Below, in pieces: positions 1 to 15,796 of a DNA stretch of 64,000 nt. Numbering within the stretch: position 1 is the stretch's first letter; every line of letters starts with the position of its first letter. Origin of the DNA: Candidatus Saganbacteria bacterium (GTDB lineage Bacteria > Margulisbacteria > WOR-1 > XYC2-FULL-46-14 > WPAF01); NCBI GenBank assembly GCA_009772965.1, contig WPAF01000001.1, forward strand, positions 78,639 through 142,638. The letters run 5' to 3'. The position numbers were made by a program, and so were the translations under genes. A model generated the notes under the pieces. The model was not told the origin of the DNA and made no database searches. It was given only the letters and a program-made list of their open reading frames with translations.

Positions 1-697
1 CGATACGATTGATCGCCAACAAGCACGCAGCAGCAACATCGCCAGCATAAATAAAATCTCTTAGAGTATCTCCTGACCCCCAAATTTCTAAAGGATTTTG
101 ACGCTTCGCCACCTTACAAACCAAGGCAGGCAAAACATGACAGGTCGCTGGATTAAAATCTCCATATTCCCCATAAACAGCGGTAGGCCGAAAGACAATT
201 GTAGACATTTTTCGTTCAAGTTTAGTAGCATACATTTTGCACATTATTTCAAGATATCTATTCATCCATCCTACTGCAAAATTAGAATTACAAGGATCAC
301 CCAAAAACATCTCTTCTTCTTTTGCCGGTCGATCTAAAGGAGGATACCCTGTAGCACTACTCAACCAAACTATTTTTTTAACTCCCGCTTCATAAGCGGC
401 TTCCATCATCTGAAAATTCATCGTAAGATTAGCTATTGCAAAAGAGAGATTTTTGGGCCGGCGATCAATTTTAGCTGCAAACATTATTGCAAAATCAATC
501 TCTTTGACCACTTCTTTGCACTGCTCCATCCGGCTTAAATCTGCAGAAACAAAAGAAATATTTTTTCCTCTGATCCGAAGCTCTTTTCCAAAATCTACAG
601 CTCTAACCAAATAATCATCTTGATTGGTTAATCTCAAAAGAATATGCGAACCAATCAATCCGGCAGCACCAGTTATTAATATGCGTTTAGCGCACAT
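1..697 (-). CDS. NAD-dependent epimerase/reductase, GDP-L-fucose synthase-like (C-terminus runs off the window start)
   Basis: Reverse-strand translation from the ATG at 695-697 gives MCAKRILITGAAGLIGSHI... (Rossmann GxxGxxG) and later VYGEYGDFNPATCHVLPALV, which resembles the Fcl/GMER motif. The start overlaps the stop of the upstream SDR gene by 1 nt. Not in the ORF track because it is truncated by the window edge. Confidence 0.6.
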   Translation of the reverse strand, partial: MCAKRILITGAAGLIGSHILLRLTNQDDYLVRAVDFGKELRIRGKNISFVSADLSRMEQCKEVVKEIDFAIMFAAKIDRRPKNLSFAIANLTMNFQMMEAAYEAGVKKIVWLSSATGYPPLDRPAKEEEMFLGDPCNSNFAVGWMNRYLEIMCKMYATKLERKMSTIVFRPTAVYGEYGDFNPATCHVLPALVCKVAKRQNPLEIWGSGDTLRDFIYAGDVAAACLLAINRI

Positions 698-1479
698 TAA
701 AACGCTTTCCCTTCGCCGCCATCCACCGTAATGGTAGCGCCGTTAACCAAACTCGCCTTTTCAGAACAAATAAAAGCCACTACATGGGCAACTTCTTCTG
801 GTGTACCCGGCCGACCCAAAGGGAACTGTTTGTCAGCTAACCTTTTAAACCCTTCAGGATCTTTTTTTCGCGCCTCATCCCACCCCGTATCTGGGATCAT
901 TATGGTTCCGGGCACGATAGTATTAAAAGTTATCCCATCTCTTGCCAATTCGGGCTTTGACGACAAAGTTTTCATGATAGCAATCTCTGAGGATTTGGCC
1001 GCAGAATACCAAGGGCGGCCACCTGTCTCTCGTCCGCATAAAGAACTTATAGTTACAACTCGTCCCCATTTTTGCTTTCGCATATAGGGAAGCGCTTTAA
1101 CCGTAAAACGGGCAGCAGCTAAAGCATTTTTGCTAAACACCTCTTGCCAAACTTTATCATCAGTTTCTTCAATGCTCTCTTTCCCCCATCGCCCACCACC
1201 ACCGACATTGTTAATTAAAATGTGAATAGTCCCCAATTGCCGTATAAAATGTTCCATAATATTTTCTATATCCGCAAGCACCATGGCATCACCAATAAGA
1301 CCCAAAGCTTTTACCCCTTTGGCTTCAATTTCTTTCTTAACCGCATTTACTAATTCCGGTCTGCGTGCACATATTCCGACATTGCATCCTTCTTCTGCCA
1401 GTGCCAGGGCAATAGCTCTCCCAATGCCATGACTTCCGCCAGTCACTAATGCATTTTTCCCCTTCAGCGCAAGCTCCAT
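697..1479 (-). CDS. SDR-family oxidoreductase (3-oxoacyl-ACP reductase-like)
   Basis: 260 aa. N-terminal ALVTGGSHGIGRAIA cofactor motif and a catalytic YSAAK (YxxxK) motif. Confidence 0.8.
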   Translation of the reverse strand: MELALKGKNALVTGGSHGIGRAIALALAEEGCNVGICARRPELVNAVKKEIEAKGVKALGLIGDAMVLADIENIMEHFIRQLGTIHILINNVGGGGRWGKESIEETDDKVWQEVFSKNALAAARFTVKALPYMRKQKWGRVVTISSLCGRETGGRPWYSAAKSSEIAIMKTLSSKPELARDGITFNTIVPGTIMIPDTGWDEARKKDPEGFKRLADKQFPLGRPGTPEEVAHVVAFICSEKASLVNGATITVDGGEGKAF

Positions 1480-1543
1480 ATAATCTCCTTAGTTTTTCAT
1501 TCCAACAAACACTTTACCGCAAAAAAGTGGTTTATTAAACTTT

Positions 1544-2584
1544 TTAAAATGGTCCTTTAAATCTATTTTCATGGCTATAGAAAGACTCTCCAGTCAAATC
1601 CATTGGTTCAAGACCAAGTTTTTTTTCAACCGACCTTATTATAGTTACAGCATTAGGATAGAAACAATTTTCTAAATGTCTTGCTGTCGGACAAGGTGTA
1701 TGCGCAAATCCAATCCGCTCAATAGGAGATTTTAGAACGCCAAAACACTTTTCGTAAATTTTGGTTGCAATTTCCGCGCTCACACCGAAATCCACCCAAT
1801 CATTATCTGCTATTATACAATGACCTGTTTTTTTGACGGATTTAATAATAATCTCATCATTTAAAGGAGCGATAGTCCTAGGATCAACAACTTCTACGCT
1901 TATACCAATTTTTTCCAAAACATCAGCAGCCTTAACAGCTTCAACATTCATCCATGAAGTGGCAACAATGGTTATATCTTTTCCTTTCTTCAAAATATTC
2001 GCTTCGCCAATTGGTATGCTGTAAGGTTCCTCAGGAACATCTCCAACTTGCCAATATAACCATCTATGCTCAATAAGAATAACTGGATTATCATCACGAA
2101 TTGCTGCAATAAGCAGTCCTTTTGCATCTTTAGGAGTAGTGGGAAGAACCACCTTCAAACCTGGGATATGGGCAAAGGTTGAAAACATGCTTTTGCTGTG
2201 TTGAAATGATTGTCCCCACCCCCTGCCAACCACAGCTCTAATAACCAAGGGCACTTTTAATGTTCCTCCAGTCCCGTATCTATAGCAAGAAATCATGTTT
2301 GCAAGTTGATTTATTGCCAAAAGCAAAAAGTCAACGCGAATATGAACATGTATTGGCCTCATTTTATTAATTGCAGCACCCAATCCAAAGCCAGTCATAG
2401 CATCTTCAGAAATAGGCGTGTCAAAGCATCTTTCTTTCCCAAACTTCTTTAATAGCCCAACCGTACTTCCAAACACACCCACATGGTCAGGAACACCTAT
2501 CCCATAAACAAAAATATTCGAATCTCGCTCCATTTCCTGCAACATTGCTTCATTCAGTGCTTCACAATAAGTAATATTCCTCAT
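1544..2584 (-). CDS. ThDP-dependent 2-oxoacid dehydrogenase E1 beta-like subunit (transketolase pyrimidine-binding + C-terminal domains), pair 1
   Basis: 346 aa with a PDH/acetoin-DH E1beta-like sequence (e.g. ...DTPISEDAMTGFGLGAA...). Overlaps the E1alpha stop by 4 nt. Confidence 0.8.
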   Translation of the reverse strand: MRNITYCEALNEAMLQEMERDSNIFVYGIGVPDHVGVFGSTVGLLKKFGKERCFDTPISEDAMTGFGLGAAINKMRPIHVHIRVDFLLLAINQLANMISCYRYGTGGTLKVPLVIRAVVGRGWGQSFQHSKSMFSTFAHIPGLKVVLPTTPKDAKGLLIAAIRDDNPVILIEHRWLYWQVGDVPEEPYSIPIGEANILKKGKDITIVATSWMNVEAVKAADVLEKIGISVEVVDPRTIAPLNDEIIIKSVKKTGHCIIADNDWVDFGVSAEIATKIYEKCFGVLKSPIERIGFAHTPCPTARHLENCFYPNAVTIIRSVEKKLGLEPMDLTGESFYSHENRFKGPF

Positions 2585-3552
2585 ATAACAGCCTCATTGT
2601 CACTAAATATATCTTTATACAATTCAGATTCGTCTGCAAAAGGGGCTTTCTTGGCTAAAAATATGCTCTTCTCGATTTTTTTATCAATTTGAAGCTCAAT
2701 TATTTCCAATTCTTTTCCATATCCTAATGCTAGCAATTTACTTTTTTGTAATTTTATAGGATCTCTTTTAGCCCAATCTATATATTCATTTTTTGAACGG
2801 TAACCAATATTAAAATCCTCATTAATCCCCACATGCTCAAGATACCTATAATATTTCAAATGAAGAAAACAAGGCATTTGATTTTCTTCATTCAATTTAA
2901 TTGCTTTTAAAACTAACTTATAAATTGTTTCAGCATCAGTTGATTCCTCTTTTAAAACATTGCACTTAAACTTACCAACAATGTCTGTTATTGAATCATA
3001 TCCATGCCTTTCAGATTCTGAAGTGTGAACAGCAAGCCCATTATCTTCACAAACAAACAAAACTGGTATTTTCATAAGGCAAGCAAGGTTTAAGCTTTCC
3101 CAAAAAGTACCTTCTTCAATAGCGCCATCGCCAAAAAACACGGCAACCATTTTTTTGTTTTTCAGTCTTAAATTTGCAAAAGCAGCTCCAACAGCAACTG
3201 AAATATGACTAGCCACAATTGCAGATGCTCCCATAAAACCTCTATTAGGATCACATAAATGCATTGATCCGCTTTTTCCTTTTTGCATCGAAGACACTTT
3301 CCCACACATTTCAGCAAAGAAATTATCAGTGTTTTCAGTTTTTGCCAAATATAAGGCATGAGATCGATAAGTACCAAAAACCTGATCATCATGACTTAAG
3401 GCATGACAAACCCCAACTACAATAGCTTCTTCTCCCATAGACATATGCATAGGAGTTTTCATCTCATTTTCAGGATATAATCTACGAATTTCTTCTTCCG
3501 ATTTTCTTATAAGATATAGCTTTCTATAAATATCCATACTTAAATTTGACAT
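2581..3552 (-). CDS. ThDP-dependent 2-oxoacid dehydrogenase E1 alpha-like subunit, pair 1
   Basis: 323 aa. ThDP-binding GDGAIEEG...NN/EDNG motif (FFGDGAIEEGTFWESLN...CEDNGLAVHT) and YRSH motif. Confidence 0.8.
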   Translation of the reverse strand: MSNLSMDIYRKLYLIRKSEEEIRRLYPENEMKTPMHMSMGEEAIVVGVCHALSHDDQVFGTYRSHALYLAKTENTDNFFAEMCGKVSSMQKGKSGSMHLCDPNRGFMGASAIVASHISVAVGAAFANLRLKNKKMVAVFFGDGAIEEGTFWESLNLACLMKIPVLFVCEDNGLAVHTSESERHGYDSITDIVGKFKCNVLKEESTDAETIYKLVLKAIKLNEENQMPCFLHLKYYRYLEHVGINEDFNIGYRSKNEYIDWAKRDPIKLQKSKLLALGYGKELEIIELQIDKKIEKSIFLAKKAPFADESELYKDIFSDNEAVI

Positions 3553-3572
3553 TATCTACTCTTCCTTAGGAA

Positions 3573-5579
3573 TTATCCATTTTGCTCTGTTTCGTTTTCA
3601 ATTTTAGGCTCACTGTTTGATTCCAAACATTCATTCAAATAAGCTCCCTTTTTTGTCCCATACCAGACAACTTCCCGGCACCATTCTTCCCATGTTTTCC
3701 GCTTGTTTTTGTCCCTATCGATCTGGTATTGGCATTTTCTCTTTTCCAAATGAATTTTTTCTCCATTTAGAGTTTTACGGTAAATATCATAAATGTTGTA
3801 ATCAAGGGTTATTTCTTCTTTCTCATTCGTAAAAGGCAATTTAATAAGCGCATTATTCAGCCGAATAGAATCGCCCAATAATCCATCCGGCAATTCTATT
3901 CGCTTGTTTTTTATGTATTCTTCGATGGCATCACTAGCTTCGTCATAGAACTGTTGCAAACCATTCTCATAACAAAGTTTTATAAAAACGTATTCATCAA
4001 CCGGCCACCAAATATTAAGCCACTCTTCGGAAGCAATATATTCATTGCTGCCCTGCTGGATTTCTTTCGCTTTTTTGATAAATGTTTCGTTTATTTCTGC
4101 TATCCTTTTTCGCTCACTGGTGTTTTTCATAAATATTTCAATCAACTCGCGATAGCTCACTTCTGCAACTTGATTCATTATAACAAAAACAAGCTGCATC
4201 AATTTATTAAAATGCAACAAAGATGTCACCCAGCAAAACACTCTGGCTTTTACCCATTCTTTTGCAGGCATCGTTTTCGTCCCCACAACAAGATATTGTT
4301 TTTCAGATATTTCCGAATGAACACTAATGCTTGTATGGTGCGGCGTATTAATAGATTCCACAATTTGCATGCCGTATTTAGATTGGTAGTCGGGATGGGA
4401 CATCTCCGTGTTATTTAAAATCGATAAATTAATAAACTGAATTCGATTATGCTGTCCGCTGCCAATCACACTTGCCACGCCTTCCGTAAAACTTTCATAG
4501 CTCTCGTTAGGCAACGCCAAAATCATGTCGCTGAAAGTAGATATATTATTTTTTGCAAACATTTTTTGCAGGTCTGCGTACGTCTTATTGTTTATGTTGC
4601 TACGATTGATGCTCTCTAATGTTTCTTGGTTCACAGATTGAAGCGCTAGGTTCACTCCTTTCTGTAGTCCGGAATCATTCAATATTTTTTGTATTTCAAA
4701 AATGCTTGCAGTAGAATTCTTGGTGTTTTGCACCGAAAAAGCCTCGGGATAACCATACTTTTCCTTGTTTTCCGCAACTTTTTTCGCTATTGCCATATCC
4801 CTTTTTAAAATTCCAAAATTAGCATCACAGCAGAAAACAAATTGAATTTTATTTTTGCTTATCCAATCAATTTCACAAAAAACCCGGTCTTGCGGAAATT
4901 GGAGAACTTTATTCCTTGTTTTATCTCCCCAGTAACAGTAGGAACAAGAAAAAGGGCATCCACGATTTGTTTCAATCAAAGCCGACCATTTTACATTGGG
5001 ATTAGCAGCCAATAAAGGATCAAAAGTCCCTTCCAAGTAGGGAGACGGGATCTCATTCAAGTCCTCTATTCTCTCCGAGGCACCATTAAAACAAAAAAGA
5101 CCTTCTTTGCCAAGAAAACCTATGGAAGGCACATTGTCCCATGAACGCTGCCTCGCACTCTCCAGAATTTTTAAAAATATTATTTCGCCTTCACCGTAAC
5201 AACCAATATCAATATATCTATGCTTCTTTAGAAATGTTTCCATTTCTTCCTTATTTTCAGGCACCTCGGGTCCCCCAAAAACAATTCTGCACTTCGGCGC
5301 ATTTAACTTGACTCTCTTTGCAATCTCAAGACTATTTTGATAATTCCAATTATAAACGCTAAAAAATATTATATCTGCAGATAAAAGATCTTTTACTTCC
5401 CTATCTATATCATCCTTTTTATAAATTGGCAGGAGAAAACAATAGTTTTCAGGGTTTTTCAGTTTCTTTTGGGCGTAGGATTGCAAAAGACCTATCGAAT
5501 ACGGCAGATAATACTGATCTCCGAATTTGTCGCCAATCTGAACCAATCCTACTGTTGTTTTACTGCTATTTTTATTCAT
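3573..5579 (-). CDS. B12-binding domain radical SAM enzyme (class B-like), long form
   Basis: 668 aa. CxxxCxxC cluster motif RGCPFSCSYCYW preceded by an N-terminal B12-binding-like domain; about 250-aa C-terminal extension. Confidence 0.75.
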   Translation of the reverse strand: MNKNSSKTTVGLVQIGDKFGDQYYLPYSIGLLQSYAQKKLKNPENYCFLLPIYKKDDIDREVKDLLSADIIFFSVYNWNYQNSLEIAKRVKLNAPKCRIVFGGPEVPENKEEMETFLKKHRYIDIGCYGEGEIIFLKILESARQRSWDNVPSIGFLGKEGLFCFNGASERIEDLNEIPSPYLEGTFDPLLAANPNVKWSALIETNRGCPFSCSYCYWGDKTRNKVLQFPQDRVFCEIDWISKNKIQFVFCCDANFGILKRDMAIAKKVAENKEKYGYPEAFSVQNTKNSTASIFEIQKILNDSGLQKGVNLALQSVNQETLESINRSNINNKTYADLQKMFAKNNISTFSDMILALPNESYESFTEGVASVIGSGQHNRIQFINLSILNNTEMSHPDYQSKYGMQIVESINTPHHTSISVHSEISEKQYLVVGTKTMPAKEWVKARVFCWVTSLLHFNKLMQLVFVIMNQVAEVSYRELIEIFMKNTSERKRIAEINETFIKKAKEIQQGSNEYIASEEWLNIWWPVDEYVFIKLCYENGLQQFYDEASDAIEEYIKNKRIELPDGLLGDSIRLNNALIKLPFTNEKEEITLDYNIYDIYRKTLNGEKIHLEKRKCQYQIDRDKNKRKTWEEWCREVVWYGTKKGAYLNECLESNSEPKIENETEQNG

Positions 5580-6571
5580 ATTTTTGCAACAAAATAACTC
5601 TTTTTATTCTTATATTCCTTGGGATTTTGAATAAACCATTCCCAAGTTTTTTTTAACCCTTCCTTAAGAGTTGTTTTTGGGCGATAATTTATGCTTTTCT
5701 CAGCTAAAGATATATCCATTATTCTTTTATTTGCTCCTGTTGGCATACTTGCATCAAAAATATACTTAAAATCAATAATTGAAGCCAACGTTTCCATTAG
5801 CTCTTTAATTGAAATAGGTTTACCGCTTCCGAGGTTTACAAAGCCGGAAGGAGTTCCATAGTATAATGCTTGTATAATACCTTCAGCCACATCACGGCTA
5901 TAAACAAAATCTCTAATTGCACTCCCATTACCCCAGACAACCAGCGGCTGTTCCTTGTGCAGTATGCGATAAAGCAAAGAAGGGATAACCAAGGAATTCG
6001 CGGGATCAAAATTGTCTCCCGGCCCATAGACGTTGGATGGCCTGACGATCGCAAAATTATCCAGACCGTGCTCCTCTCCATATGCAAAGATCTGCGCCTC
6101 CGCCATTCTTTTTGCCCAGCCCGCAAAATCCATTGGATTGCTGTCGATCCGATATTCAGATTCCTTAAATATTTCCGCAGGAGCATAAGCGCCAACCGAA
6201 CTCGTGTATACTATTTTTTTGACTTTATTGAGCCGACAGGCCTCCAGGACATTGCTGTTCATCATCAGCATCGGCACAAAATGGCTGGCGGCTTTTTCCT
6301 TAGCAGCTTTAACCGACGCCCCGATCCCGGCAATATGGAAAACAAAGTCCATGTCTTCGGTCAGCTTTTTACAAAGGTCGAAGGAAGTCAGATCTCCGAT
6401 TATATATTCAGCTTTTTTATTCAGCCTGAGGCTATCCAAGGAAACAATCTTCAGGTGGGCCCCGGTGTCTGCCAAAATATCCGCGACTTGCCTACCGATC
6501 AATCCGGTTCCACCAGTGACTAAAATATCTTTTTTATTAAAACTCTCTAAAATATCTTTACTTATCACCAT
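5576..6571 (-). CDS. GDP-L-fucose synthase-like NAD(P)-dependent epimerase/reductase
   Basis: The ORF-track entry is 5576..6622. The likely true start is the internal Met (MVISKDIL...) at 6571, which removes the 50-nt overlap with the upstream gene. [14 protein letters not shown] Rossmann motif and VYGPGDNFDPANSLVIPSLLYRI, which resembles the Fcl/GMER motif. Confidence 0.65.
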   Translation of the reverse strand: MVISKDILESFNKKDILVTGGTGLIGRQVADILADTGAHLKIVSLDSLRLNKKAEYIIGDLTSFDLCKKLTEDMDFVFHIAGIGASVKAAKEKAASHFVPMLMMNSNVLEACRLNKVKKIVYTSSVGAYAPAEIFKESEYRIDSNPMDFAGWAKRMAEAQIFAYGEEHGLDNFAIVRPSNVYGPGDNFDPANSLVIPSLLYRILHKEQPLVVWGNGSAIRDFVYSRDVAEGIIQALYYGTPSGFVNLGSGKPISIKELMETLASIIDFKYIFDASMPTGANKRIMDISLAEKSINYRPKTTLKEGLKKTWEWFIQNPKEYKNKKSYFVAKI

Positions 6572-6572
6572 G

Positions 6573-7631
6573 TCAAAACGGCCCCTTGAACTCTTTATAT
6601 AGCGTCTTCTTATATTCTTCATCCGGCAATGATTGATTATGTTTTTCCTTGCCAGAACAAAGCTGATAAATATTATCTACAATATCTCCCATATCAGCAT
6701 AAAAATGTTTTTCTAACGCCTTTGTCGTCGGACAGGGAGATTTGGCCATCGAAATTTCCTTTAATGGGACTTTTAAACTGTCAGGTGCATTAACAGCAAT
6801 TATTCTCGCCACTTCCGCGCAAACCCCAAAAGAAGCCCAGCTTGTATCAGCCACAATCACTTTTCCAGTTTTTTTAACACTTTCCAATATCATGTCGACA
6901 TCGGGATGCGTCAGGCAATTAATATCTATGATCTCGACTTCTATCCCGGCTTTTTCTTTTACGTATTTTGCCGCCCGCTGTGCTTCTTGCACCATAACGG
7001 AAACAGCAACGATCGTTACGTCGCTTCCTTTTCTGATAAGATATGAGGTAAAAGGATTTTGGTCATCTCTCCGCTCTTTTACTTCAAAACTATAATCGTA
7101 TTGCAATCGATGTTCGAAGGATATCACCGGAGATTTATATTCATTTACAGCATATCGGTAACAATCCATAATGCTCTGCGCCGCCGACGGCATAATGACT
7201 GTCAATCCGGGAACATGAGAAAAAAGAGATTGCAGGCTTTGTGAATGCTGCGCCCCTTGCCCCCAACTTCGCCCGATCACTCCGCGAACCAGCATCGGCA
7301 CGGTAAAACAGCCACCGTACATATATTTGTACTTGGCGGCAGAATTAACCAGCTGGTTCATCGCTAACAGCATGAAATCATTCCTGATATGCGTGTGGAT
7401 GGGATAATAACCGCTCAGAGCCAGCCCAATGCCTAAACCAGTCATGGCATCCTCGGAGATCGGCGTATCGAAGACTCGCTCTTTGCCAAATTCTTTTTCC
7501 AGCCCAAGCGTCGTACCGAATATCCCCGTATGGTCAGTTACGCCAAGTCCGTAAAGCACGGTTTTAGGATTATCTCTTAGTGCCTCACGCATTGCTTTTG
7601 CCAGCGCTTGCCTGTAAGTCATTGTTGCCAT
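6573..7631 (-). CDS. ThDP-dependent 2-oxoacid dehydrogenase E1 beta-like subunit, pair 2
   Basis: 352 aa, paralogous to 1544..2584 (..DTPISEDAMTGLGIGLA..). Confidence 0.8.
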   Translation of the reverse strand: MATMTYRQALAKAMREALRDNPKTVLYGLGVTDHTGIFGTTLGLEKEFGKERVFDTPISEDAMTGLGIGLALSGYYPIHTHIRNDFMLLAMNQLVNSAAKYKYMYGGCFTVPMLVRGVIGRSWGQGAQHSQSLQSLFSHVPGLTVIMPSAAQSIMDCYRYAVNEYKSPVISFEHRLQYDYSFEVKERRDDQNPFTSYLIRKGSDVTIVAVSVMVQEAQRAAKYVKEKAGIEVEIIDINCLTHPDVDMILESVKKTGKVIVADTSWASFGVCAEVARIIAVNAPDSLKVPLKEISMAKSPCPTTKALEKHFYADMGDIVDNIYQLCSGKEKHNQSLPDEEYKKTLYKEFKGPF

Positions 7632-8551
7632 TAATAAACGTCCTTCAGAAGCTCTTCCCGCGGCGGAAAACCACTTTTTTCCGCAAAATTTACCGCTTCT
7701 GCTATTTCATTTTCGATCCTTCCCCTGTATTTTTCAATCAGCGCCCTGTTCCCGACCAGTGGATCCCGGCGCATCCATTCTTCCAGTTCTTTTCTCCCTC
7801 TGTAACCTTTATCATAATCCTCAGCAACACCAACATGTCCTTTATACCTATAAGTCATAATCTCAAGAAGGAAGGGTCGTTTAGTGTTTACAATTCCTTC
7901 CCTTATCTTTATTGTTTTTTCAAAAATATTTTCCATATCAAAGCCATCTTCTGCTAAAAAATAATCAATGCCATACGATCCAGCTAATGCTCCAAGTGTG
8001 TATGACTGCCTGATGCAGAGCGGCGCATGGATCGCCAAGCCATTATTCTCAATTACATAAAGTATTGGCAGATTCTTCAAAGAAGAAAAATTCAGGCATT
8101 CGTGAAAAGCCCCCTCTTCAGTCGCGCCATCGCCCGCCAAGGCAACTGCAATCTTAGATTCTTTCTTTAATTTTGCCGCGTAGGCAACGCCCATTGCGTG
8201 AGAAAAAATCGAACCAACTATCGCGGATGATCCCATCGAACCGTTAGCAGGAGAACAAAGATGCATTGATCCGGCTTTGCCCTTTGCCATGCCGGAATGT
8301 TTACCATACAATTCGGCAAACATTGCTTTCAAGTCTCCTCCCTTGGCAAGATAAGGCGCATGGCTTCGGTAGGTTGCAAAGACCATGTCATCCTTTTTCA
8401 GCGCTGCACAGATGGCAACAACATGATGCTCCTGGCCAATGGAGAGATGAACAGGGCTCTGGATCTTATCAGAAGGGTAGATTTCCACGATCTTTTCTTC
8501 AATCATTCTTATCCTGAGAGCCTGATAAAATAATTTTTCGAATGTATCCAT
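7631..8551 (-). CDS. ThDP-dependent 2-oxoacid dehydrogenase E1 alpha-like subunit, pair 2
   Basis: 306 aa; LAGDGATEEGAFHECLN...IENNGLAIH ThDP motif; YRSHAPYLAKG. Confidence 0.8.
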   Translation of the reverse strand: MDTFEKLFYQALRIRMIEEKIVEIYPSDKIQSPVHLSIGQEHHVVAICAALKKDDMVFATYRSHAPYLAKGGDLKAMFAELYGKHSGMAKGKAGSMHLCSPANGSMGSSAIVGSIFSHAMGVAYAAKLKKESKIAVALAGDGATEEGAFHECLNFSSLKNLPILYVIENNGLAIHAPLCIRQSYTLGALAGSYGIDYFLAEDGFDMENIFEKTIKIREGIVNTKRPFLLEIMTYRYKGHVGVAEDYDKGYRGRKELEEWMRRDPLVGNRALIEKYRGRIENEIAEAVNFAEKSGFPPREELLKDVY

Positions 8552-9541
8552 TTAAACTGTTTCCCTGGCGACAGCTTCACGGCAATGGTCTAAGAGATAT
8601 TGAACGCTTTCTTCAAAAGAATATTTCGGCTGCCAGCCAGTCTCTTTTTTGAATTTACTCACGTCCGGAACCTGCAGCGTCACATCCGCAGGGCGCAAAA
8701 GTTTCGGATCGACTTCACTTTTGATCGGCACCCGCGCAAGTTTTTTTAATAACTCCATGAATTCACCTACTTTTATCGTAGTCGGACCGCCGATATTGTA
8801 AACTTCTCCATAACGGCATTTGAGCAACGCTACCCAGTATGATTCCATAGCATCGCGAACATCAATAATGGTCCGTATCGAATCCAGGTTTCCGTGAAGC
8901 AGTATTTTTTGCTGCCCAGCTTCGATCCTGGCGACTTGCATCGTAAAAGAGGTCGCAAAAAGATCTTGCCTCCTTGGATTCAGGTATGCAAACATCCTGG
9001 TTCGTATGATCTTCATCTTATAACTGAGGTAATAGGTATAACCCAGCAGATCCTGCGCTACTTTTGAGACGGCGTAAGGGCTGGAGGGATTGATCGGGCA
9101 ATCTTCTTTGATCGGAACATTCTTCGGGTCAACCTGGCCGTAAACCTCCGAAGTGCTGCAAAGCTGGACAACAGGGTCGAGCTCTGCGATCCTGATCCCT
9201 TCCAGCAGATTTGCTGTCCCCATAATATTGTTGTTCAAGACCGAAAGCGGAGTGATAAAAGAGGCGCGCACATTGGCATGGGAGGCAAGATGGAATATCC
9301 CGTCAGGTTTTACCTGTTTCAAGGTGGAAAGAACAGAACTCAGATCGTTCAGGTCGCATTCATGCACCGTCACATTGTCCCTGATATTACGCAGATTTTC
9401 GTTGGCTGCGGTGCTGTGCCATCTCGATATCCCGTGCACCTCAATTTCGGGGTGATGATTAACTACGTATTCAGCCAGATAGCTTCCGCCTGAACCGGAC
9501 ATCCCCGTAATGATCACTTTTCTTATTTTTCTTTCGCTCAT
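8552..9541 (-). CDS. GDP-mannose 4,6-dehydratase / GDP-6-deoxy-mannose reductase family sugar-nucleotide dehydratase
   Basis: 329 aa; ITGMSGSGGSYLAEYV...HGISR N-terminus and a PYAVSK (YxxxK) motif, as in Gmd/Rmd-type extended SDRs. Confidence 0.6.
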   Translation of the reverse strand: MSERKIRKVIITGMSGSGGSYLAEYVVNHHPEIEVHGISRWHSTAANENLRNIRDNVTVHECDLNDLSSVLSTLKQVKPDGIFHLASHANVRASFITPLSVLNNNIMGTANLLEGIRIAELDPVVQLCSTSEVYGQVDPKNVPIKEDCPINPSSPYAVSKVAQDLLGYTYYLSYKMKIIRTRMFAYLNPRRQDLFATSFTMQVARIEAGQQKILLHGNLDSIRTIIDVRDAMESYWVALLKCRYGEVYNIGGPTTIKVGEFMELLKKLARVPIKSEVDPKLLRPADVTLQVPDVSKFKKETGWQPKYSFEESVQYLLDHCREAVARETV

Positions 9542-9544
9542 AGG

Positions 9545-10477
9545 TTAAATATTGGCGTACTGGTTCCGTTTTATGATCCGGAACGCCTTAATCAGTTCCG
9601 CGATCCCTTCCTGCAGGGAAACCTGCGGCTTAAATCCCGTTCTTTCTATCTTTTCATTGCTTACGATATAATCCCTCTTATCCGGATCTTCACCTACTTC
9701 GGCTTCCACAAAATAAAAATCTGGGATCAATTTTTTTATCTCCTGGCATAATTCCAGCTTACTAAGATTTGCGTCGCTAAGCCCAACATTATACGGCTCA
9801 TTTTTCATTTTCTCAAAATTATCCAGCGAATGGATGAAAGCTCGAGCAATATCGCGCACGTGGATATAATTACGGTTAAAATGCGCTTCGAACAGCACAA
9901 TGAATCGGTCATAGAAGGCGCGGTAGGTAAAATCATTCACCAAGAGGTCAAGGCGCATCCTCGGGCTGACACCAAATGCGGTGGCAAGCCTTAATGTGAT
10001 CGCGTTGCCGGCCGCCAACAGCAAATTCTCAGCTTCTACTTTGATCTTTCCGTAAATTGAGATCGGATTCAAGGGAGTGGCTTCAGTGCAATGCTTACCT
10101 TTTTGCCCGATCCCATATCCACTGTTAGTGGTCGGATATATAATGACCTGATCTTTGCAACGCAATGACAGAATCATTTTGATGGCATCGACGATTACCG
10201 TGTGAGCCGCGATCGGATCCTTATTGCAGAGCGGGGCACCGGTAAGGCAGGCCAGCGGAAAAATGGCATCCATGTCCTTCATATGCTTCCTGACTAGCTC
10301 TTTATCCCGAGTATCACCTCTGATGATCTCAAGTTTTTTATCGTAGCAACATTCCAGCAGCGAGGTTTGGCCATACATAAAATTGTCAAGGACTGCTACT
10401 GCGTGCCCCTGTTTCAACAATTCAGGCACCATGACTGAGCCGAGATAACCGGCGCCGCCTGTAACCAATATTTTCAT
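9545..10477 (-). CDS. NAD-dependent sugar-nucleotide epimerase/dehydratase
   Basis: 310 aa; MKILVTGGAGYLGS Rossmann start and a YGKIK (YxxxK) motif. Confidence 0.7.
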   Translation of the reverse strand: MKILVTGGAGYLGSVMVPELLKQGHAVAVLDNFMYGQTSLLECCYDKKLEIIRGDTRDKELVRKHMKDMDAIFPLACLTGAPLCNKDPIAAHTVIVDAIKMILSLRCKDQVIIYPTTNSGYGIGQKGKHCTEATPLNPISIYGKIKVEAENLLLAAGNAITLRLATAFGVSPRMRLDLLVNDFTYRAFYDRFIVLFEAHFNRNYIHVRDIARAFIHSLDNFEKMKNEPYNVGLSDANLSKLELCQEIKKLIPDFYFVEAEVGEDPDKRDYIVSNEKIERTGFKPQVSLQEGIAELIKAFRIIKRNQYANI

Positions 10478-10707
10478 TTTTTTTCTTCCAACTCCCGTAT
10501 AACTTTCTTATAAACTTTTTTGACTTTTCCCGGAAGATTTGGATTCAATAAAATTAGAATGTTCTTGCCTAAAACCCTGTATTGTCCGCCGATCTTAGCG
10601 GCATTTAGGAAACCGCTTCTGATCAAACGCCGAAAGGTGGAATCAGAGATCTTTAAAATGGTCGTTACCTCTTGAGGGGTATAGACCTCATTTTCGTCAA
10701 CTATCAT
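10474..10707 (-). CDS. Small helix-turn-helix DNA-binding protein (excisionase/MerR-like HTH), first gene of the short operon
   Basis: 77 aa; TPQEVTTILKISDSTFRRLIRSGFLNAAKIGGQYRV matches the excisionase-family HTH pattern. Overlaps the downstream epimerase start by 4 nt. Confidence 0.6.
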   Translation of the reverse strand: MIVDENEVYTPQEVTTILKISDSTFRRLIRSGFLNAAKIGGQYRVLGKNILILLNPNLPGKVKKVYKKVIRELEEKK

Positions 10708-10716
10708 AGTTGAAAA

Positions 10717-10744
10717 ATTATAGCACCTAGGCTAATTTTGTCAA
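10717..10744 (-). promoter_or_regulatory. Sigma70-type promoter for the short operon: -35 TTGACA (10744->10739), 16-nt spacer, -10 TATAAT (10722->10717) on the minus strand
   Basis: Read directly. The plus strand has tgtcaa at 10739-10744 and attata at 10717-10722. The predicted TSS is about 3 nt from the HTH ATG, so the mRNA would be leaderless or near-leaderless, and no Shine-Dalgarno is visible. Confidence 0.55.
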
Positions 10745-10756
10745 GATGCAATATAT

Positions 10757-10780
10757 CTTGTCAATTCTTGTCAATTCTTA
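10757..10780. repeat. Tandem direct repeat cttgtcaatt x2.4 in the divergent intergenic region (candidate operator)
   Basis: cttgtcaattcttgtcaattctta read directly. A third TTGTCAA copy lies at 10738-10744, overlapping the -35 element. Confidence 0.6.
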
Positions 10781-10836
10781 CGGTTAAGCGTGCATGGTAG
10801 TGGGCGGATACCGACATGGAATTATGTTTGAAAATA

Positions 10837-10845
10837 TGATAATAT
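10837..10845 (+). promoter_or_regulatory. Candidate extended -10 element (TGaTAATAT) for the plus-strand radical SAM gene
   Basis: tgataatat lies 10 nt upstream of the ATG at 10855. No convincing -35 is present. Another near-leaderless arrangement. Confidence 0.35.
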
Positions 10846-10854
10846 AGATTTTAT

Positions 10855-11820
10855 ATGAAAACATTTTTTGTATCATTAAGTCGTTTTCCCCTTAGAATTG
10901 TCTATACCATAATCGGAGTTATATTTCGTGCAGATAAACGCATAGCGGAGAGGCTACCAAGATACTTTCCAACATACCGCGCATTTGCCGGAGAGACCAT
11001 AAACCAACTTTTCAAGTGTGTTAAGTCATCAAGATCGTTCTTGCCACAGGGGATCATCCTAGAGCCAACTAATATCTGTAATCTTAGATGCGCACATTGT
11101 GTTCCTCAATCCTTGAACGAAAAAAGAGGCATGATGGAATATGATTTTTATGTATCCATTCTCGATTCCAATCCTCAACTGACCAGTATGATCTTAAGCA
11201 GAAATGGAGAACCCTTTTTGCATCCAAATATATTTGATATGATATCTTATGCGAAGAGAAAAGGAATCTACATGGCTGTGTATACAAATGGGATGTTGCT
11301 TAAGTCGGACAGGTGTAGTGACATTATCTCGTCGGGATTAGATGAGATAAATTTTTCTTTAGAGGCCGTTGGCGATGCGTACGAGAAAAACAGAGGAGTT
11401 CCTTATAGCTTTTTTTCCGAGGCTTTATCCAGTCTTTTATCTAAACGTGCTATATCCGGATCGCGCCTTAGGGTGGGATTGAATATAGCAAAAATAGGTG
11501 CATGTGAAACCGCGCTCCGAAATATCTATGAAGAATGGGCTGGCAAAGTTGACGTTATTGATGTTGAGCCGATAATGGGTGGCAAGTCATCCAGAAGGCG
11601 TCTACCTTGCAGGACATTATGGCGCAATGTGGTTGTGCGCTGGGATGGAATTGTCCTGCCGTGTTGTATCGATATGAAGAGCAGTCTGGTTATGGGAGAT
11701 GCTAAAACGGCATCCCTTAAAGAAATATTTAATAGCCCGCAGGCAAGGGCGCTGAGATTGAAGCATATAAAAGGTGAATATCCTCCTGTGTGCGAATATT
11801 GTGATAGTCTTTTTGGTTAA
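10855..11820 (+). CDS. Radical SAM protein with C-terminal SPASM/twitch-like cysteine cluster
   Basis: 321 aa; CNLRCAHC (CxxxCxxC) and a C-terminal Cys-rich region (CRTLW...LPCCID...CEYCD). One of only two plus-strand CDS in the window. Confidence 0.75.
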   Translation: MKTFFVSLSRFPLRIVYTIIGVIFRADKRIAERLPRYFPTYRAFAGETINQLFKCVKSSRSFLPQGIILEPTNICNLRCAHCVPQSLNEKRGMMEYDFYVSILDSNPQLTSMILSRNGEPFLHPNIFDMISYAKRKGIYMAVYTNGMLLKSDRCSDIISSGLDEINFSLEAVGDAYEKNRGVPYSFFSEALSSLLSKRAISGSRLRVGLNIAKIGACETALRNIYEEWAGKVDVIDVEPIMGGKSSRRRLPCRTLWRNVVVRWDGIVLPCCIDMKSSLVMGDAKTASLKEIFNSPQARALRLKHIKGEYPPVCEYCDSLFG

Positions 11821-11851
11821 CAAGACAATGGTTGAATGAGAAAAAATAATT

Positions 11852-13597
11852 TCAGCCGTTTGAGAGTGCTGCTTCCATTTGTTGCAAGAAATCCTTTTTT
11901 GCTACCGGATAAGCTAATGCTTCTTTGAACCTTTTAATCGGTTCTTTCCTATCCTCAATAAAACCAGGCAAATCATTAACCACCCTATTAAAAGAATTAA
12001 TTCCGGATTTAACGTCATAAAAAACCATTCCGCATTTCACCAACTCCCGATTAATTTTTTTCCCTTCATCTGAAGAAATACAATTAAACTCATATTTCGA
12101 CTGAAACACTAGAGTTGGGACGCCAGTTTGTATTGATTCCGCAAAGCCAGTACTAATCGAATCCCACAAAACAAAATCCACTTTATCATAAAGTGACATT
12201 GGCAAAACATTAATATCGAGCACTTTAATTGAACCATCATTACAACTCTTTACAAGATCATTTTGAATTGGATCATAGCAGGAATCTGTTCCCGGGAACG
12301 GCTTATAAAGAATTTTAAGGTTATGATATAGTGTTTTAATTTCTTTGAGCAAACAAAGCATATTCAACCTGTGCTGATAAAACTTTTCGGGAGATAAAGA
12401 GTCAAGATCGCGCATAAATTCCGTAAGCGGCTGTGCAGGGTATAAAACAACAATATCTTCAGAATTATTATCTCGCCCTCTCCACTTCTTAAGCTTTAGA
12501 GAAGATAAGAGATAATACAAGAAAGGTGTGCCATAATTTATTATTTTTACATTTACGTGCGGCCTTTTGCTTTTAATCCAATCGCTATTGGCTTTGCCCC
12601 ATGTAAAGAAATAATCAATAAAACGCAATTCATTATCGGCATGCGCGAAGAAGGGCTGATAATTTACTACACCATGATCATGGCAAACAAGCAGCGCCCC
12701 TTTACGTTTGGCCAAAAAAGCGAATATCTTAAAGTTTTCATTCAAAGAATACCCCGTAAAGGAATGAACCTGTTTTATGTCCCATTGATTAAGACGGCTT
12801 TTATAATAAGCGTATTTTTCTTCGAACCCCTCAACAATTGATAAGGGCAATGCGCAATCCATAAACTCAGCATAAGCTTTTGAAACTTTCTTCGCCTGAA
12901 TTTCATCCATTGCACCGACAAACTTGTTGGCATATTTAAAAAATATATTTTCGTAACATCCCTTTATTTGGCTTCGAATGTCATAGTTTATTTCACGAGC
13001 ACTTCCCAAGAAATCGAAATGAAATAAATCACGAGAAGAGAGGGTGCTTTTCATCCAACCCGAATATTCCCCAATCACTTTAGGTTTTATCAATTTGACA
13101 TAAAAACTGTTTATGCTCGCCAATATTTTCCTAGCTTGCTTTTTCAAATTAAAACCATCTTCTCTCTTAAGCAATGATTCCTGCGGTTTCGGAAGATTTT
13201 TTATCGTTTGCATATGGAGAAATTCATTATGATTAAAAATGCATTGTATTTTATGTAAAATGGCATGGTTAATTGCATAATCATGGTAATAGCTTAAAAC
13301 AACTTCGCGGGTATTATTAAAATAATGCAGCTCATAATCGATTTTTGGATAAGCAACTCCCGACTTAGTTTCTATTTGGAAGGAAACCCTTAGCAATCTC
13401 TCAATGAACATATATGTAACAGAATTTATCGGGAAACGGAGCAGCAATAAAAGCTCCTTGGAACTAAGAGTTTTATATATTGATAATTTTTTATTATAAA
13501 TTTCAAGAATAACATCATCTGCAAGTTTGTTGGCATATTCGACCATTGTTTTCTGGTCATAAAGATCTGTCCAATCCATTCCGTTTTTTATCTCCAT
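11852..13597 (-). CDS. Large hypothetical protein (581 aa), possible novel transferase of a glycan locus
   Basis: Long uninterrupted ORF translationally coupled to the downstream PIG-L gene (stop at 13597, next start 13599). No motif I can name with confidence. It is soluble-looking (no long hydrophobic stretches). Confidence 0.5.
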   Translation of the reverse strand: MEIKNGMDWTDLYDQKTMVEYANKLADDVILEIYNKKLSIYKTLSSKELLLLLRFPINSVTYMFIERLLRVSFQIETKSGVAYPKIDYELHYFNNTREVVLSYYHDYAINHAILHKIQCIFNHNEFLHMQTIKNLPKPQESLLKREDGFNLKKQARKILASINSFYVKLIKPKVIGEYSGWMKSTLSSRDLFHFDFLGSAREINYDIRSQIKGCYENIFFKYANKFVGAMDEIQAKKVSKAYAEFMDCALPLSIVEGFEEKYAYYKSRLNQWDIKQVHSFTGYSLNENFKIFAFLAKRKGALLVCHDHGVVNYQPFFAHADNELRFIDYFFTWGKANSDWIKSKRPHVNVKIINYGTPFLYYLLSSLKLKKWRGRDNNSEDIVVLYPAQPLTEFMRDLDSLSPEKFYQHRLNMLCLLKEIKTLYHNLKILYKPFPGTDSCYDPIQNDLVKSCNDGSIKVLDINVLPMSLYDKVDFVLWDSISTGFAESIQTGVPTLVFQSKYEFNCISSDEGKKINRELVKCGMVFYDVKSGINSFNRVVNDLPGFIEDRKEPIKRFKEALAYPVAKKDFLQQMEAALSNG

Positions 13598-13598
13598 A

Positions 13599-14300: not shown

Positions 14301-14301
14301 A

Positions 14302-15537: not shown

Positions 15538-15548
15538 TTCGACTCTCC

Positions 15549-15776
15549 TTAAATTAATTTTTTCCCCAAAACATGAGCAATATCACCCAAATTATTAATT
15601 TGAAACATTTCATCAATTTCAAATTTAATAGAAAATTCTTTTTCTAAAGCCATAATTAAGCTTAAATGCCCCATTGAATCCCAAGCGGGAATATCAGCTG
15701 ACGTCCATCGCATATCTATTTTTCCATTATCAAATTTAAATGTCTCTCTAATAACTTTTTCTATACGCCTATCCAC
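15549..15776 (-). CDS. Acyl/peptidyl carrier protein
   Basis: 75 aa; WDSMGHLSLIMALEKEF places a Ser in the phosphopantetheine-attachment context (DSx...L..E.EF). Confidence 0.6.
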   Translation of the reverse strand: MDRRIEKVIRETFKFDNGKIDMRWTSADIPAWDSMGHLSLIMALEKEFSIKFEIDEMFQINNLGDIAHVLGKKLI

Positions 15777-15796
15777 ACGCCTTCTCCTTCCTGATA

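Follow-up and report, generated by a model that had tools for sequence, protein, structure and literature searches.

Two paralogous E1 enzyme pairs without an E2 partner in a GDP-deoxysugar operon of Candidatus Saganbacteria: candidate carboligases for C-branched surface sugars

A stretch of 64,000 nucleotides (nt; the window) from a metagenome-assembled genome (MAG) of Candidatus Saganbacteria raises the question of what two paralogous E1 enzymes, homologues of that component of pyruvate dehydrogenase (PDH) which depends on thiamine diphosphate (ThDP), do in an operon of sugar-nucleotide genes. Each enzyme is encoded as separate alpha and beta subunits, called here pair 1 (alpha-1 and beta-1) and pair 2 (alpha-2 and beta-2). 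A B12-binding radical SAM enzyme is encoded between them, and a third pair is found elsewhere in the same glycan island. Beta-1 and beta-2 are 100% identical to proteins named Candidatus Saganbacteria. The evidence presented below indicates that each of the two pairs is probably an E2-independent ThDP carboligase of the alpha-KADH2 type, which would branch a GDP-linked 4-keto-6-deoxy or 4-keto-3,6-dideoxy sugar.

The presence of both pairs and of the radical SAM gene in one tightly packed operon on the minus strand is confirmed by domain matches with E-values of 1e-23 to 1e-51. Pair 1 is comprised of alpha-1, a ThDP-binding subunit of 323 amino acids (aa) encoded at 2581-3552 (PF00676, 5.6e-49), and of beta-1 (346 aa, 1544-2584; PF02779, 1.1e-31, and PF02780, 1.5e-31), the C-terminus of which reads ENRFKGPF. 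Pair 2 is comprised of the ThDP-binding alpha-2 (306 aa, 7631-8551; PF00676, 1.5e-51) and of beta-2 (352 aa, 6573-7631; PF02779, 3.5e-27, and PF02780, 2.4e-23), ending in YKEFKGPF. The 306-aa start of alpha-2 is favoured because the resulting N-terminus aligns with that of alpha-1. The B12-binding radical SAM enzyme (668 aa, 3573-5579) carries PF02310 and PF04055. Both pairs and the radical SAM enzyme had been named in a first-pass annotation of the window, and their open reading frames and Pfam domains are unambiguous. The alpha and beta genes overlap by 1-4 nt within both pairs, and the genes of the operon are otherwise separated by gaps of 0-64 nt or overlap slightly.

The operon crosses the start of the window. 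The contig available in the European Nucleotide Archive (ENA), which shares 11,479 bases with the window without a mismatch, continues for a further 9,304 bases. No gene for an E2, E3 or lipoyl protein is found in the operon (1-10855), nor in its 9.3-kb continuation past the window start. The first-pass annotation had reported that the operon contains neither a lipoyl carrier nor an E2, which thus holds for the part inside the window and for the extension alike. It had also set beforehand, as the observation that would indicate an ordinary catabolic complex, an E2 or E3 just beyond the window start, and none is encoded there. Its description of the operon as short, on the other hand, has to be given up, since at least 9.3 kb more, with seven further co-directional genes, follow past the window start. 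The same absence is seen in relatives of the operon. No lipoyl-domain homologue occurs in 28 related loci totalling 440 kb, and no Pfam domain of E2, E3 or lipoyl proteins is listed for the eight related loci that have full Pfam annotation.

The two pairs are also distant from each other and from the enzymes of central metabolism. Alpha-1 and alpha-2 are 40% identical, beta-1 and beta-2 43%, and both pairs share about 30-34% with pair 3. Recent duplication of the E1 pairs is rejected at these identities, and the possibility that the three are near-identical duplicates, named in advance as the other observation that would speak against a special role, is ruled out by the same range of 30-43%. 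Every NCBIfam PDH model scores these subunits below its cut-off: TIGR03182 gives 241.8 bits for alpha-1 and 246.4 for alpha-2 (cut-off 393.85), PRK09212 gives 312.7 for beta-1 and 263.1 for beta-2 (cut-off 321), and PRK11892 gives 294 and 247, respectively (cut-off 454). Beta-1 is 40% identical to the PDH E1 beta subunit of B. stearothermophilus and has an additional C-terminal extension of about 24 residues. As judged from their sequences, the two E1 families are ancient and distinct, and are not housekeeping enzymes.

The catalytic apparatus is retained in both pairs. The ThDP motif has the form GDG...EDN in alpha-1 and GDG...ENN in alpha-2, the catalytic histidine of the alpha subunit lies in YRY(x)(E/G)H, and the beta histidine at position 129 is invariant in an alignment of 54 sequences. 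Immediately after the catalytic histidine, however, the alpha subunits of pairs 1 and 2 and of all orthologues examined have a loop of the form HVGxxED(F/Y)xxGYR with a 3-residue insertion. This loop is EHVGINEDFNIGYR in alpha-1 and, with the 3-residue insertion, GHVGVAEDYDKGYR in alpha-2. The canonical loop (GH-S-x-S-D-D) is found in pair 3 and in two canonical E1 enzymes (L032 and L033; L numbers denote the individual loci compared), but not in pairs 1 and 2.

The second distinguishing feature is the FKGPF terminus of the beta subunits, which sits on a C-terminal extension of 24-30 residues and is encoded at 1544-1558 in beta-1 and at 6573-6587 in beta-2. It is present in 111 of 120 matches of the beta-1 family and in 112 of 120 matches of the beta-2 family. 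An exhaustive search of 1.84 billion representatives places the beta-1 family in a single cluster at 50% identity, and 48 of the 150 nearest clusters at that level, fused alpha-beta proteins among them, end in FxGP(F/Y). The tail is missing from pair 3, from L032 and L033, and from the E1 beta subunits of B. stearothermophilus and Thermus. Pair 3 thus serves as an internal control, having the alpha loop GHSKSDD, a beta subunit without the tail, and a lipoyl-domain partner. In an AlphaFold2 monomer model of beta-1, the core has a pLDDT of 85.8, and both the tail and the active-site loop (residues 122-130) are below 50, the tail being modelled as disordered.

Both families are widespread. Beta-1 belongs to more than 120 clusters at 90% identity, which are 73-84% identical to it and the sources of which include Syntrophales, Elusimicrobiota, Omnitrophota, Dehalococcoidia and Blastocatellia. 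Orthologues in species genomes (61-74%) come from Desulfobacteraceae, Peribacteria, Gemmatimonadales, Chloroflexi, Sedimentisphaerales, Betaproteobacteria, Pirellulales, Omnitrophota and the cultured Heliobacterium mobile DSM 6151, and orthologues of alpha-1 are 57-66% identical in L004, L005 and L007. The beta-2 family (55-81%) is found in Elusimicrobiota, Acidobacteria, Syntrophobacteraceae and Methanoregula. Genes of the 4,6-dehydratase type adjoin orthologues of one pair or the other in about 25 loci, which come from more than 10 phyla.

The order of genes around each family is conserved as well. In the neighbourhood of pair 1, a dehydratase-like short-chain dehydrogenase/reductase (SDR) is followed by E1 alpha, E1 beta, in some loci a protein of about 310 aa, then either a classical SDR of 260 aa (adh260) or an aldo-keto reductase, an SDR, a cupin 3,5-epimerase, another SDR and an HddA-like kinase. 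Orthologues of adh260 (50-66%) follow E1 beta-1 in L004, L007, L009, L013, L015, L016, L021 and L036, and the aldo-keto reductase takes their place in other pair-1 loci. GmhA, GmhB and an HddC-like guanylyltransferase frequently accompany this family (L004, L005, L007, L016 and L018). In H. mobile DSM 6151 (L018), GmhB, HddC and GmhA are directly upstream of the pair, and split transketolases and two aldo-keto reductases are also encoded. In the neighbourhood of pair 2, the order is an extended SDR of 310 aa (SDR310), a dehydratase-like SDR, E1 alpha, E1 beta, an SDR, a short reductase, a further SDR and a DegT homologue of the His type described below, with a kinase and a nucleotidyltransferase nearby. 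SDR310 is a recurrent partner of the pair-2 family, and its orthologues are 51-61% identical in L009, L010, L026, L027 and the plasmids of Azospirillum and Solidesulfovibrio magneticus. The Azospirillum lipoferum 4B plasmid AZO_p6 (L034) encodes SDR310, E1 alpha, E1 beta (ending in QFKGPF) and a His-type DegT homologue among glycosyltransferases.

The protein of about 310 aa, which has no recognised domain and often follows E1 beta-1 (L013 3274-4203, L036 2233-3186, L007 11049-12053), appears in L005 (11864-13783, 639 aa) to form one polypeptide with the C-terminal half of a split transketolase. The operon in the window lacks it.

The other genes of the operon fit a pathway for a GDP-linked deoxysugar. 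Those listed by the first-pass annotation, encoding a helix-turn-helix (HTH) protein, an epimerase, a GMD-like protein, two Fcl-like proteins and an SDR, all exist and are on the minus strand. A predicted sigma-70-like promoter at 10744-10717 on the minus strand (TTGACA, 16-nt spacer and TATAAT, with a TG extension) is the sole 12/12 consensus match in 1-12000 and lies just upstream of the start of the first gene at 10707. This gene encodes a 77-aa HTH_17 protein of the excisionase/MerR-like type (10474-10707, PF12728) and overlaps by 4 nt the gene of SDR310 (9545-10477, GalE/RmlD-like, Pfam Epimerase, 4.7e-28). The minus strand then encodes the 329-aa GDP-sugar 4,6-dehydratase-like SDR (8552-9541, PF16363, 2.8e-69), pair 2, an Fcl/GME-like extended SDR (5576-6622, 348 aa as listed, Pfam Epimerase, 3.3e-44), the B12 radical SAM enzyme, pair 1, adh260 (697-1479, FabG/butanediol-dehydrogenase-like, adh_short_C2, 1.1e-45), and an Fcl-like SDR of 317 aa in full, the 5' two-thirds of which lie within the window (1-697). 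The gene at 5576-6622 was correctly recognised at first, but its start was not: as listed it overlaps beta-2 by 50 bases, and the true start is probably 6571, as called independently, giving 331 aa.

Past the window start, in the direction of the operon, the remainder of the 317-aa SDR is followed by a co-directional radical SAM protein of 435 aa and a co-directional Fcl-like SDR of 322 aa. The extension further contains genes for an HddA-like GHMP kinase (154.7 bits, against a cut-off of 600 for HddA), a 406-aa DegT homologue about 4-5 kb past the window start (L001 19120-20340, identical to L012 15020-16240), a glycosyltransferase (TIGR04440), a co-directional ATP-binding cassette (ABC) exporter of 613 aa and a 642-aa protein without domains. 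The closest structures to the DegT homologue are CDP-6-deoxy-L-threo-D-glycero-4-hexulose 3-dehydrase (3BCX, 1.3e-58) and ColD. At the position of the lysine that binds pyridoxal phosphate (PLP) it has a histidine (YVAHMIS, compared with YPAHHIT in the wild-type dehydrase and YPAKHIT in its H220K mutant), and the CxC...C...C motif is kept. The histidine in place of the PLP lysine, the cysteine motif and the structural matches together indicate a 3-dehydratase rather than an aminotransferase. The same histidine is found in the DegT homologues of L010 and of the S. magneticus and Azospirillum plasmids. The scaffold-forming genes thus resemble, by homology, the colitose, ascarylose and yersiniose routes to a 3,6-dideoxy-4-keto sugar.

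The 329-aa SDR is presumed to be the source of the 4-keto-6-deoxy acceptor. It has a GMD-like STSE...YxxxK motif, and its best match among solved structures is the GDP-D-glycero-D-manno-heptose 4,6-dehydratase of C. jejuni (7US5, 1e-54), followed by Rmd (2PK3, 3.4e-51) and then by GMDs, so that its best solved relatives are all GDP-sugar enzymes. The Fcl-like SDR at 5576-6622 is matched by the GDP-L-fucose synthase model at 137 bits, under the cut-off, and by structures of GDP-fucose synthases and GDP-mannose 3,5-epimerases. The SDR encoded next after the ketoreductase in pair-1 cassettes shares 58-65% identity with it. The best NCBIfam match of the B12 radical SAM enzyme, a presumed C-methyltransferase, is the KedN5 family (NF033712, 264.9 bits against a cut-off of 700); a 642-aa homologue in an Elusimicrobia locus (L009) is 46% identical over 644 aa, and related copies adjoin aldo-keto reductases in L020, L023 and L024.

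From the observed gene content and order, the absence of E2 and E3, the homologies, the conserved neighbourhoods and the sequence signatures, we infer a route in which each catalytic step, the donor, the position of branching and the order of the reactions are proposed. The 329-aa SDR would supply the GDP-4-keto-6-deoxy acceptor. The pyridoxamine phosphate (PMP)-dependent, His-type 3-dehydratase, encoded just past the window start, would probably remove the 3-hydroxyl, and because of this gene the acceptor is probably 3,6-dideoxy. It could accordingly be a GDP-4-keto-6-deoxy or 4-keto-3,6-dideoxy hexose or heptose, on a scaffold like those of colitose and yersiniose. The E1 pair would decarboxylate pyruvate, or another 2-oxo acid, to a ThDP-bound acyl-anion equivalent (the hydroxyethylidene-ThDP carbanion) and, where an ordinary E1 passes this unit to lipoamide, add it to the C4 carbonyl of the keto-sugar; the product would be a 4-C-acetyl tertiary alcohol. 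Adh260, the presumed ketoreductase of the acetyl branch, would reduce the branch ketone to a 1-hydroxyethyl group, as an aldo-keto reductase of the Pau7 class might in the sister loci. The KedN5-like B12 radical SAM enzyme would add a methyl group, the Fcl-like SDRs would epimerise or reduce the ring, and the downstream glycosyltransferase and ABC exporter would deliver the sugar to a surface glycan.

The first-pass annotation had already proposed two-carbon branching of a sugar. The core of that proposal is borne out by the absence of E2 and E3, the GDP-deoxysugar context, the conserved synteny and the precedent in antibiotic pathways, but the identity that it gave to the sugar is less certain. 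It called the product a 6-deoxyhexose; the GDP-deoxysugar scaffold stands, whereas a heptose may take the place of the hexose, in view of the HddA-like kinase and of GmhA, GmhB and HddC in the orthologous loci. The supply set for GDP-D-glycero-alpha-D-manno-heptose is itself incomplete here, with the HddA-like kinase alone present, outside the window.

Several observations weigh against branching by pairs 1 and 2. A 4-reductase of the Rmd type is a possible alternative identity for the 329-aa SDR, since the STSE and YxxxK motifs do not discriminate between the two activities. With C4 made tertiary by branching, three or four further Fcl-like SDRs would have no evident role. The 73 kb seen contain no gene for GmhA, GmhB or HddC, and none for a nucleotidyltransferase that would act on the product of the kinase. 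A protein with a lipoyl domain is encoded in the same island, about 19 kb away (27628-28725). The tail is absent from the E1 pair of a glycan locus in S. magneticus RS-1 (L039, plasmid pDMC1), which is flanked by a kinase (56%), a His-type DegT homologue (57%), a homologue of SDR310 and an HddC-like transferase. Finally, an E1 beta subunit on the Streptomyces griseofuscus plasmid pSGRIFU1 ends in GFAGPY and is encoded beside condensation-domain and acyl carrier protein (ACP) genes. The FKGPF tail as a strict marker of sugar branching is rejected on account of the tail-less S. magneticus glycan pair and of this similar tail, linked to non-ribosomal peptide synthetase and ACP genes, in Streptomyces.

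The S. griseofuscus pair (L035, 10989-13035) stands alone, has the 3-residue insertion in its alpha subunit, and is adjoined by condensation-domain, ACP and ketosynthase genes. Its location beside non-sugar genes indicates that the clade of E1 enzymes without E2 also serves pathways that do not involve sugars.

The presence of two pairs in one operon raises a second question, that of whether they work on the same sugar. None of about 27 other loci, those of the closest beta relatives included, has two E1 pairs. The operon in the window corresponds to a pair-2 cassette in which a pair-1 module (SDR, B12 radical SAM enzyme, alpha-1, beta-1, adh260, the 317-aa SDR and a radical SAM protein) replaces the 330-aa SDR (SDR330) and short reductase that belong to pair 2. 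The G+C content at third codon positions (GC3) is 0.53 in SDR310, 0.52 in the dehydratase-like gene and 0.41-0.44 in pair 2, compared with 0.22 in alpha-1 and 0.29 in beta-1 (window mean 0.35, sd 0.05). This mosaic suggests modules of different origin that have been joined recently, and the operon appears to have arisen by fusion of two cassettes which elsewhere occur apart. From such a fusion it follows that the pairs either act serially on one sugar or make two related branched sugars. The first-pass annotation read the two pairs and the radical methylase as pointing to a multiply C-branched sugar, and this is now one of two readings, two different branched sugars being equally possible after a fusion of two cassettes.

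A related arrangement is found in L009, an Elusimicrobia contig that encodes homologues (57-69% identical) of the kinase, the His-type DegT protein, SDR310, the dehydratase-like SDR, alpha-2, beta-2, adh260 and the 435-aa radical SAM protein. At the position of pair 1 (11126-17650) it encodes a YerE-like ThDP enzyme of the acetolactate synthase (ALS) type, a split transketolase and an aldo-keto reductase, together with its KedN5-like B12 radical SAM enzyme. YerE-type enzymes are experimentally proven sugar-branching catalysts (PMC9306805). E1 pairs are found together with split transketolases, ALS-like enzymes or both in L005, L011, L016, L018, L028 and L029, and genes of the YerE-like or ALS type occur in the related loci L009, L011, L017, L028 and L029. 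The replacement of pair 1 in L009 and the combinations of ThDP enzymes elsewhere suggest that non-homologous families of ThDP carboligases are interchangeable, or additive, within one frame of genes.

It is possible, though it falls short of being probable, that both pairs branch sugars and give two different singly branched products from one GDP-4-keto-6-deoxy precursor. These could differ in 3-deoxygenation, for instance, which only one of them would have undergone, or in the site of the branch, at C3 in one and at C4 in the other. In the roughly 27 other loci, either family is found by itself, accompanied by tailoring genes of its own, and the loci of the closest relatives of beta-1 (84%, L036) and beta-2 (81%, L037) have single pairs too. 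Branching at C3 and branching at C4 are both known from alpha-KADH2 enzymes (PMC12247030), and the difference in GC3 between the upstream block (0.41-0.53) and alpha-1/beta-1 (0.22-0.29) suggests recently joined modules. The two pairs have, however, a single dehydratase-like gene, kinase, His-type DegT homologue and classical ketoreductase between them, and just one dedicated glycosyltransferase follows the operon. With SDR330 and the short reductase of pair 2 missing, a single merged pathway fits at least as well.

In such a merged pathway, which we put forward tentatively and regard as rather doubtful in its details, the pairs would act in series on one GDP sugar. An acetyl branch would first be put on the 4-keto-3,6-dideoxy intermediate by pair 2 and left unreduced, which is consistent with the loss of the reductase that usually goes with this pair. 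Further elaboration, at the branch carbonyl or at a second position of the ring, would fall to the B12 radical SAM enzyme and pair 1, and adh260 would carry out the final reduction.

A different ThDP chemistry is unlikely but deserves consideration. Rather than placing an acetyl branch on C4, the pairs might lengthen or shorten a heptose side chain at C6/C7, use a longer or hydroxylated 2-oxo acid as the donor, or cleave an acyloin in the manner of the acetoin-cleaving E1. The link of the pair-1 family to the heptose supply genes GmhA, GmhB, HddA-like and HddC-like points in this direction, as does its association with a complete trio of oxidase-, epimerase- and reductase-like proteins, which needs a free C4. 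Up to three types of ThDP enzyme are stacked in related loci, members of the YerE family use C4-C8 donors (PMC9306805), and acetoin:DCPIP oxidoreductase belongs to the same structural superfamily (PMC12247030). Every alpha-KADH2 enzyme with a known product, on the other hand, adds a C2 branch from pyruvate to a ring ketone (PMC12247030). In about 15 loci the pair is flanked by a dehydratase-like gene immediately before it and by a ketoreductase gene after it, and the operon contains neither an aldolase gene nor any other evident origin of longer 2-oxo acids.

Pair 3 brings up a lipoyl-dependent role, which is very improbable for pairs 1 and 2. Its alpha (26720-27631) and beta (25121-26128) genes, both on the minus strand, are separated by a gene for an LplA/B-like lipoyl ligase (26103-26723, minus strand) and preceded by one for a protein in which a lipoyl domain is fused to a PglD-like hexapeptide acyltransferase (27628-28725, minus strand). 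This fusion looks like an E2 substitute that could pass an acyl group generated by E1 to an amino sugar. Pairs 1 and 2 might likewise load acyl groups on it for N-acylation of amino sugars and form no carbon-carbon bonds. The island does encode both the fusion and the ligase, and the catalytic histidines for reductive acylation are kept in all three pairs. The lipoyl protein, however, is about 19 kb from the operon and embedded with pair 3, and the related loci, as stated above, have no counterpart of it. Pairs 1 and 2, furthermore, deviate from pair 3 in the loop of the lipoyl-lysine channel and in the beta C-terminus. In the B. stearothermophilus complex, the beta C-terminus docks E2.

That the pairs are ordinary catabolic or housekeeping E1 enzymes for pyruvate, branched-chain 2-oxo acids or acetoin, present in the glycan island by chance, is hardly credible in spite of automatic annotations as subunits of PDH or acetoin:DCPIP oxidoreductase and of the 40% identity of beta-1 to a bona fide PDH E1 beta, and it is rejected on account of the sub-cut-off scores, the lack of E2 and E3, the translational coupling to sugar-nucleotide genes in one operon and a glycan neighbourhood that recurs in about 25 loci of more than 10 phyla.

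The surroundings of the operon have features of their own. The pair 3 region adjoins the genes of NeuB (24055-25107) and of a CMP-sugar cytidylyltransferase (29754-30482). Beside NeuB, the segment 17205-24054 encodes a class-III aminotransferase, a methyltransferase of the LIC12133 family, a PdxA-like dehydrogenase, a protein of the inositol-monophosphatase family, an AMP-ligase, a glyoxalase-fold protein and a GNAT protein. By homology, the products of this set may serve to make an unusual substituent, acyl or side-chain, of a nonulosonic acid. Five radical SAM genes are found in the island (3573-5579, 10855-11820, 15797-17212, 30479-31852 and 34148-35725), four encoding B12-binding enzymes and one a radical SAM/SPASM protein, which is transcribed divergently from the promoter region of the operon. 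With the 435-aa protein just outside the window, this is an unusually high density for a sugar island. RmlA and RmlB (47432-49164) lie among housekeeping genes, outside the island, and no other sugar-nucleotide supply genes occur in the window. RmlB is above its equivalog cut-off (486 against 365 bits), and the adjoining RmlA-like thymidylyltransferase is short. Genes for a cupin epimerase, a split transketolase, an ALS-like enzyme or an aldo-keto reductase were not found in the window, nor was a single-chain TPP_enzyme_N/M/C (acetolactate-synthase-like) protein.

Both E1 families are frequent in surface-glycan loci across many phyla, in association with GDP-sugar and heptose pathways and often alongside split transketolases, YerE-like enzymes and B12 radical SAM methylases. 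We found no literature on E1 pairs in GDP-sugar, heptose or O-antigen glycan loci, although an earlier mention is possible. If the pairs are carboligases, C-branched deoxysugars would have a much wider distribution among environmental bacteria than one would gather from the few structures known, and the families would be a source of new carboligases for chiral tertiary alcohols. If, in addition, the two pairs act in series, the operon would represent an iterative ThDP and radical SAM route to a multi-carbon, multiply branched higher sugar, of a type undescribed so far, and the families with the FKGPF tail, along with the split transketolases and YerE-like enzymes encoded beside them, would mark a large pool of C-branched surface sugars, as yet unexplored, in bacteria that are anaerobic or uncultured. 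The cultured carriers H. mobile DSM 6151, A. lipoferum 4B and S. magneticus RS-1 make the idea testable.

Compared with known systems, the two pairs share their fold and cofactor motifs with the E1 components of PDH and of the branched-chain and acetoin dehydrogenases. They differ from these in having no E2 or E3, in scoring below the family cut-offs, in the remodelled alpha loop and in the 24-30-residue FKGPF extension of the beta subunit.

The sugar-nucleotide genes recall the modification of GDP-heptose in C. jejuni, to the dehydratase of which the 329-aa SDR is closest, and the HddA-like kinase is a further likeness. The loci orthologous to that of pair 1 are like heptose routes also in having GmhA, GmhB, an HddC-like transferase, a cupin epimerase and Fcl-like reductases. 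The window itself has no GmhA, GmhB, HddC or cupin epimerase. To our knowledge, no ThDP enzyme takes part in the described C. jejuni GDP-heptose pathways.

The dehydratase-like SDR, the DegT homologue with histidine for lysine and the Fcl/ColC-like SDRs resemble the GDP-colitose route (GMD, ColD and ColC) and the E1 dehydrase of CDP-ascarylose biosynthesis. Colitose biosynthesis, however, has no ThDP, radical SAM or classical-SDR steps, and here the keto intermediate is apparently intercepted for the formation of a carbon-carbon bond. The sequence of steps in the biosynthesis of CDP-yersiniose A, in which a 4,6-dehydratase and a PMP-dependent 3-dehydratase are followed by ThDP-dependent acyl branching at C4 of a 3,6-dideoxy-4-keto sugar and by NAD(P)H-dependent reduction (YerE/YerF), is similar to the one proposed (PMC9306805). 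ErwE, MyGE and MMAR_2332 are further YerE-like enzymes, and the products of the group, YerE included, go into surface polysaccharides (PMC9306805). YerE, however, is a single-chain flavoprotein of the acetolactate-synthase type, belongs to the decarboxylase superfamily and acts on CDP sugars. The E1 pairs differ in these respects, and the analogy is functional only.

The closest precedent is the pair AviB1/AviB2 of avilamycin biosynthesis, already cited by the first-pass annotation; it is real, and has since been widened to the named class alpha-KADH2 (PMC12247030, PMC4753412, PMC4802897). For AviB1/B2 and for Pau11/12 (equal to Plm8/9) of paulomycin biosynthesis, C2 branching is supported by genetics and feeding, and for EvdU5/EvdS3 of everninomicin biosynthesis it is hypothesised; the paulomycin branch is reduced by the aldo-keto reductase Pau7 (PMC12247030, PMC4753412, PMC4802897, PMC10338323). 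KbDH-alpha/beta, from kibdelomycin biosynthesis, couples pyruvate to ketone analogues in vitro (PMC12247030, PMC4753412, PMC4802897). The class is predicted in about 120 actinomycete antibiotic clusters, with one enzyme tested in vitro (PMC12247030). In a 2025 review, secondary metabolites are the setting given for alpha-KADH2 enzymes and split transketolases, and lipopolysaccharide is that of YerE-like enzymes alone; all 13 predicted split transketolases are from streptomycetes (PMC12247030).

In architecture, motifs, absence of E2 and E3 and context, pairs 1 and 2 agree with the alpha-KADH2 class, of which they are candidate members; the sequences used for pairwise identities were B. stearothermophilus PDH E1 beta, two canonical genomic E1 enzymes and the plasmid pairs of Azospirillum and Streptomyces. 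As in that class, the alpha and beta subunits are encoded by separate E1 genes, no E2 or E3 accompanies them, they lie among the genes of an NDP-sugar pathway that yields a keto-sugar, and a ketoreductase follows, which is an SDR in the window and the aldo-keto reductase Pau7 in paulomycin biosynthesis. Unlike the pairs of the class, they belong to a cell-surface glycan island of a Saganbacteria MAG, and to those of many other non-actinomycete phyla, rather than to an antibiotic cluster, and the scaffold appears to be of the GDP type instead of dTDP or UDP. The operon differs from them, furthermore, in combining two paralogous pairs with a B12 radical SAM enzyme encoded between them.

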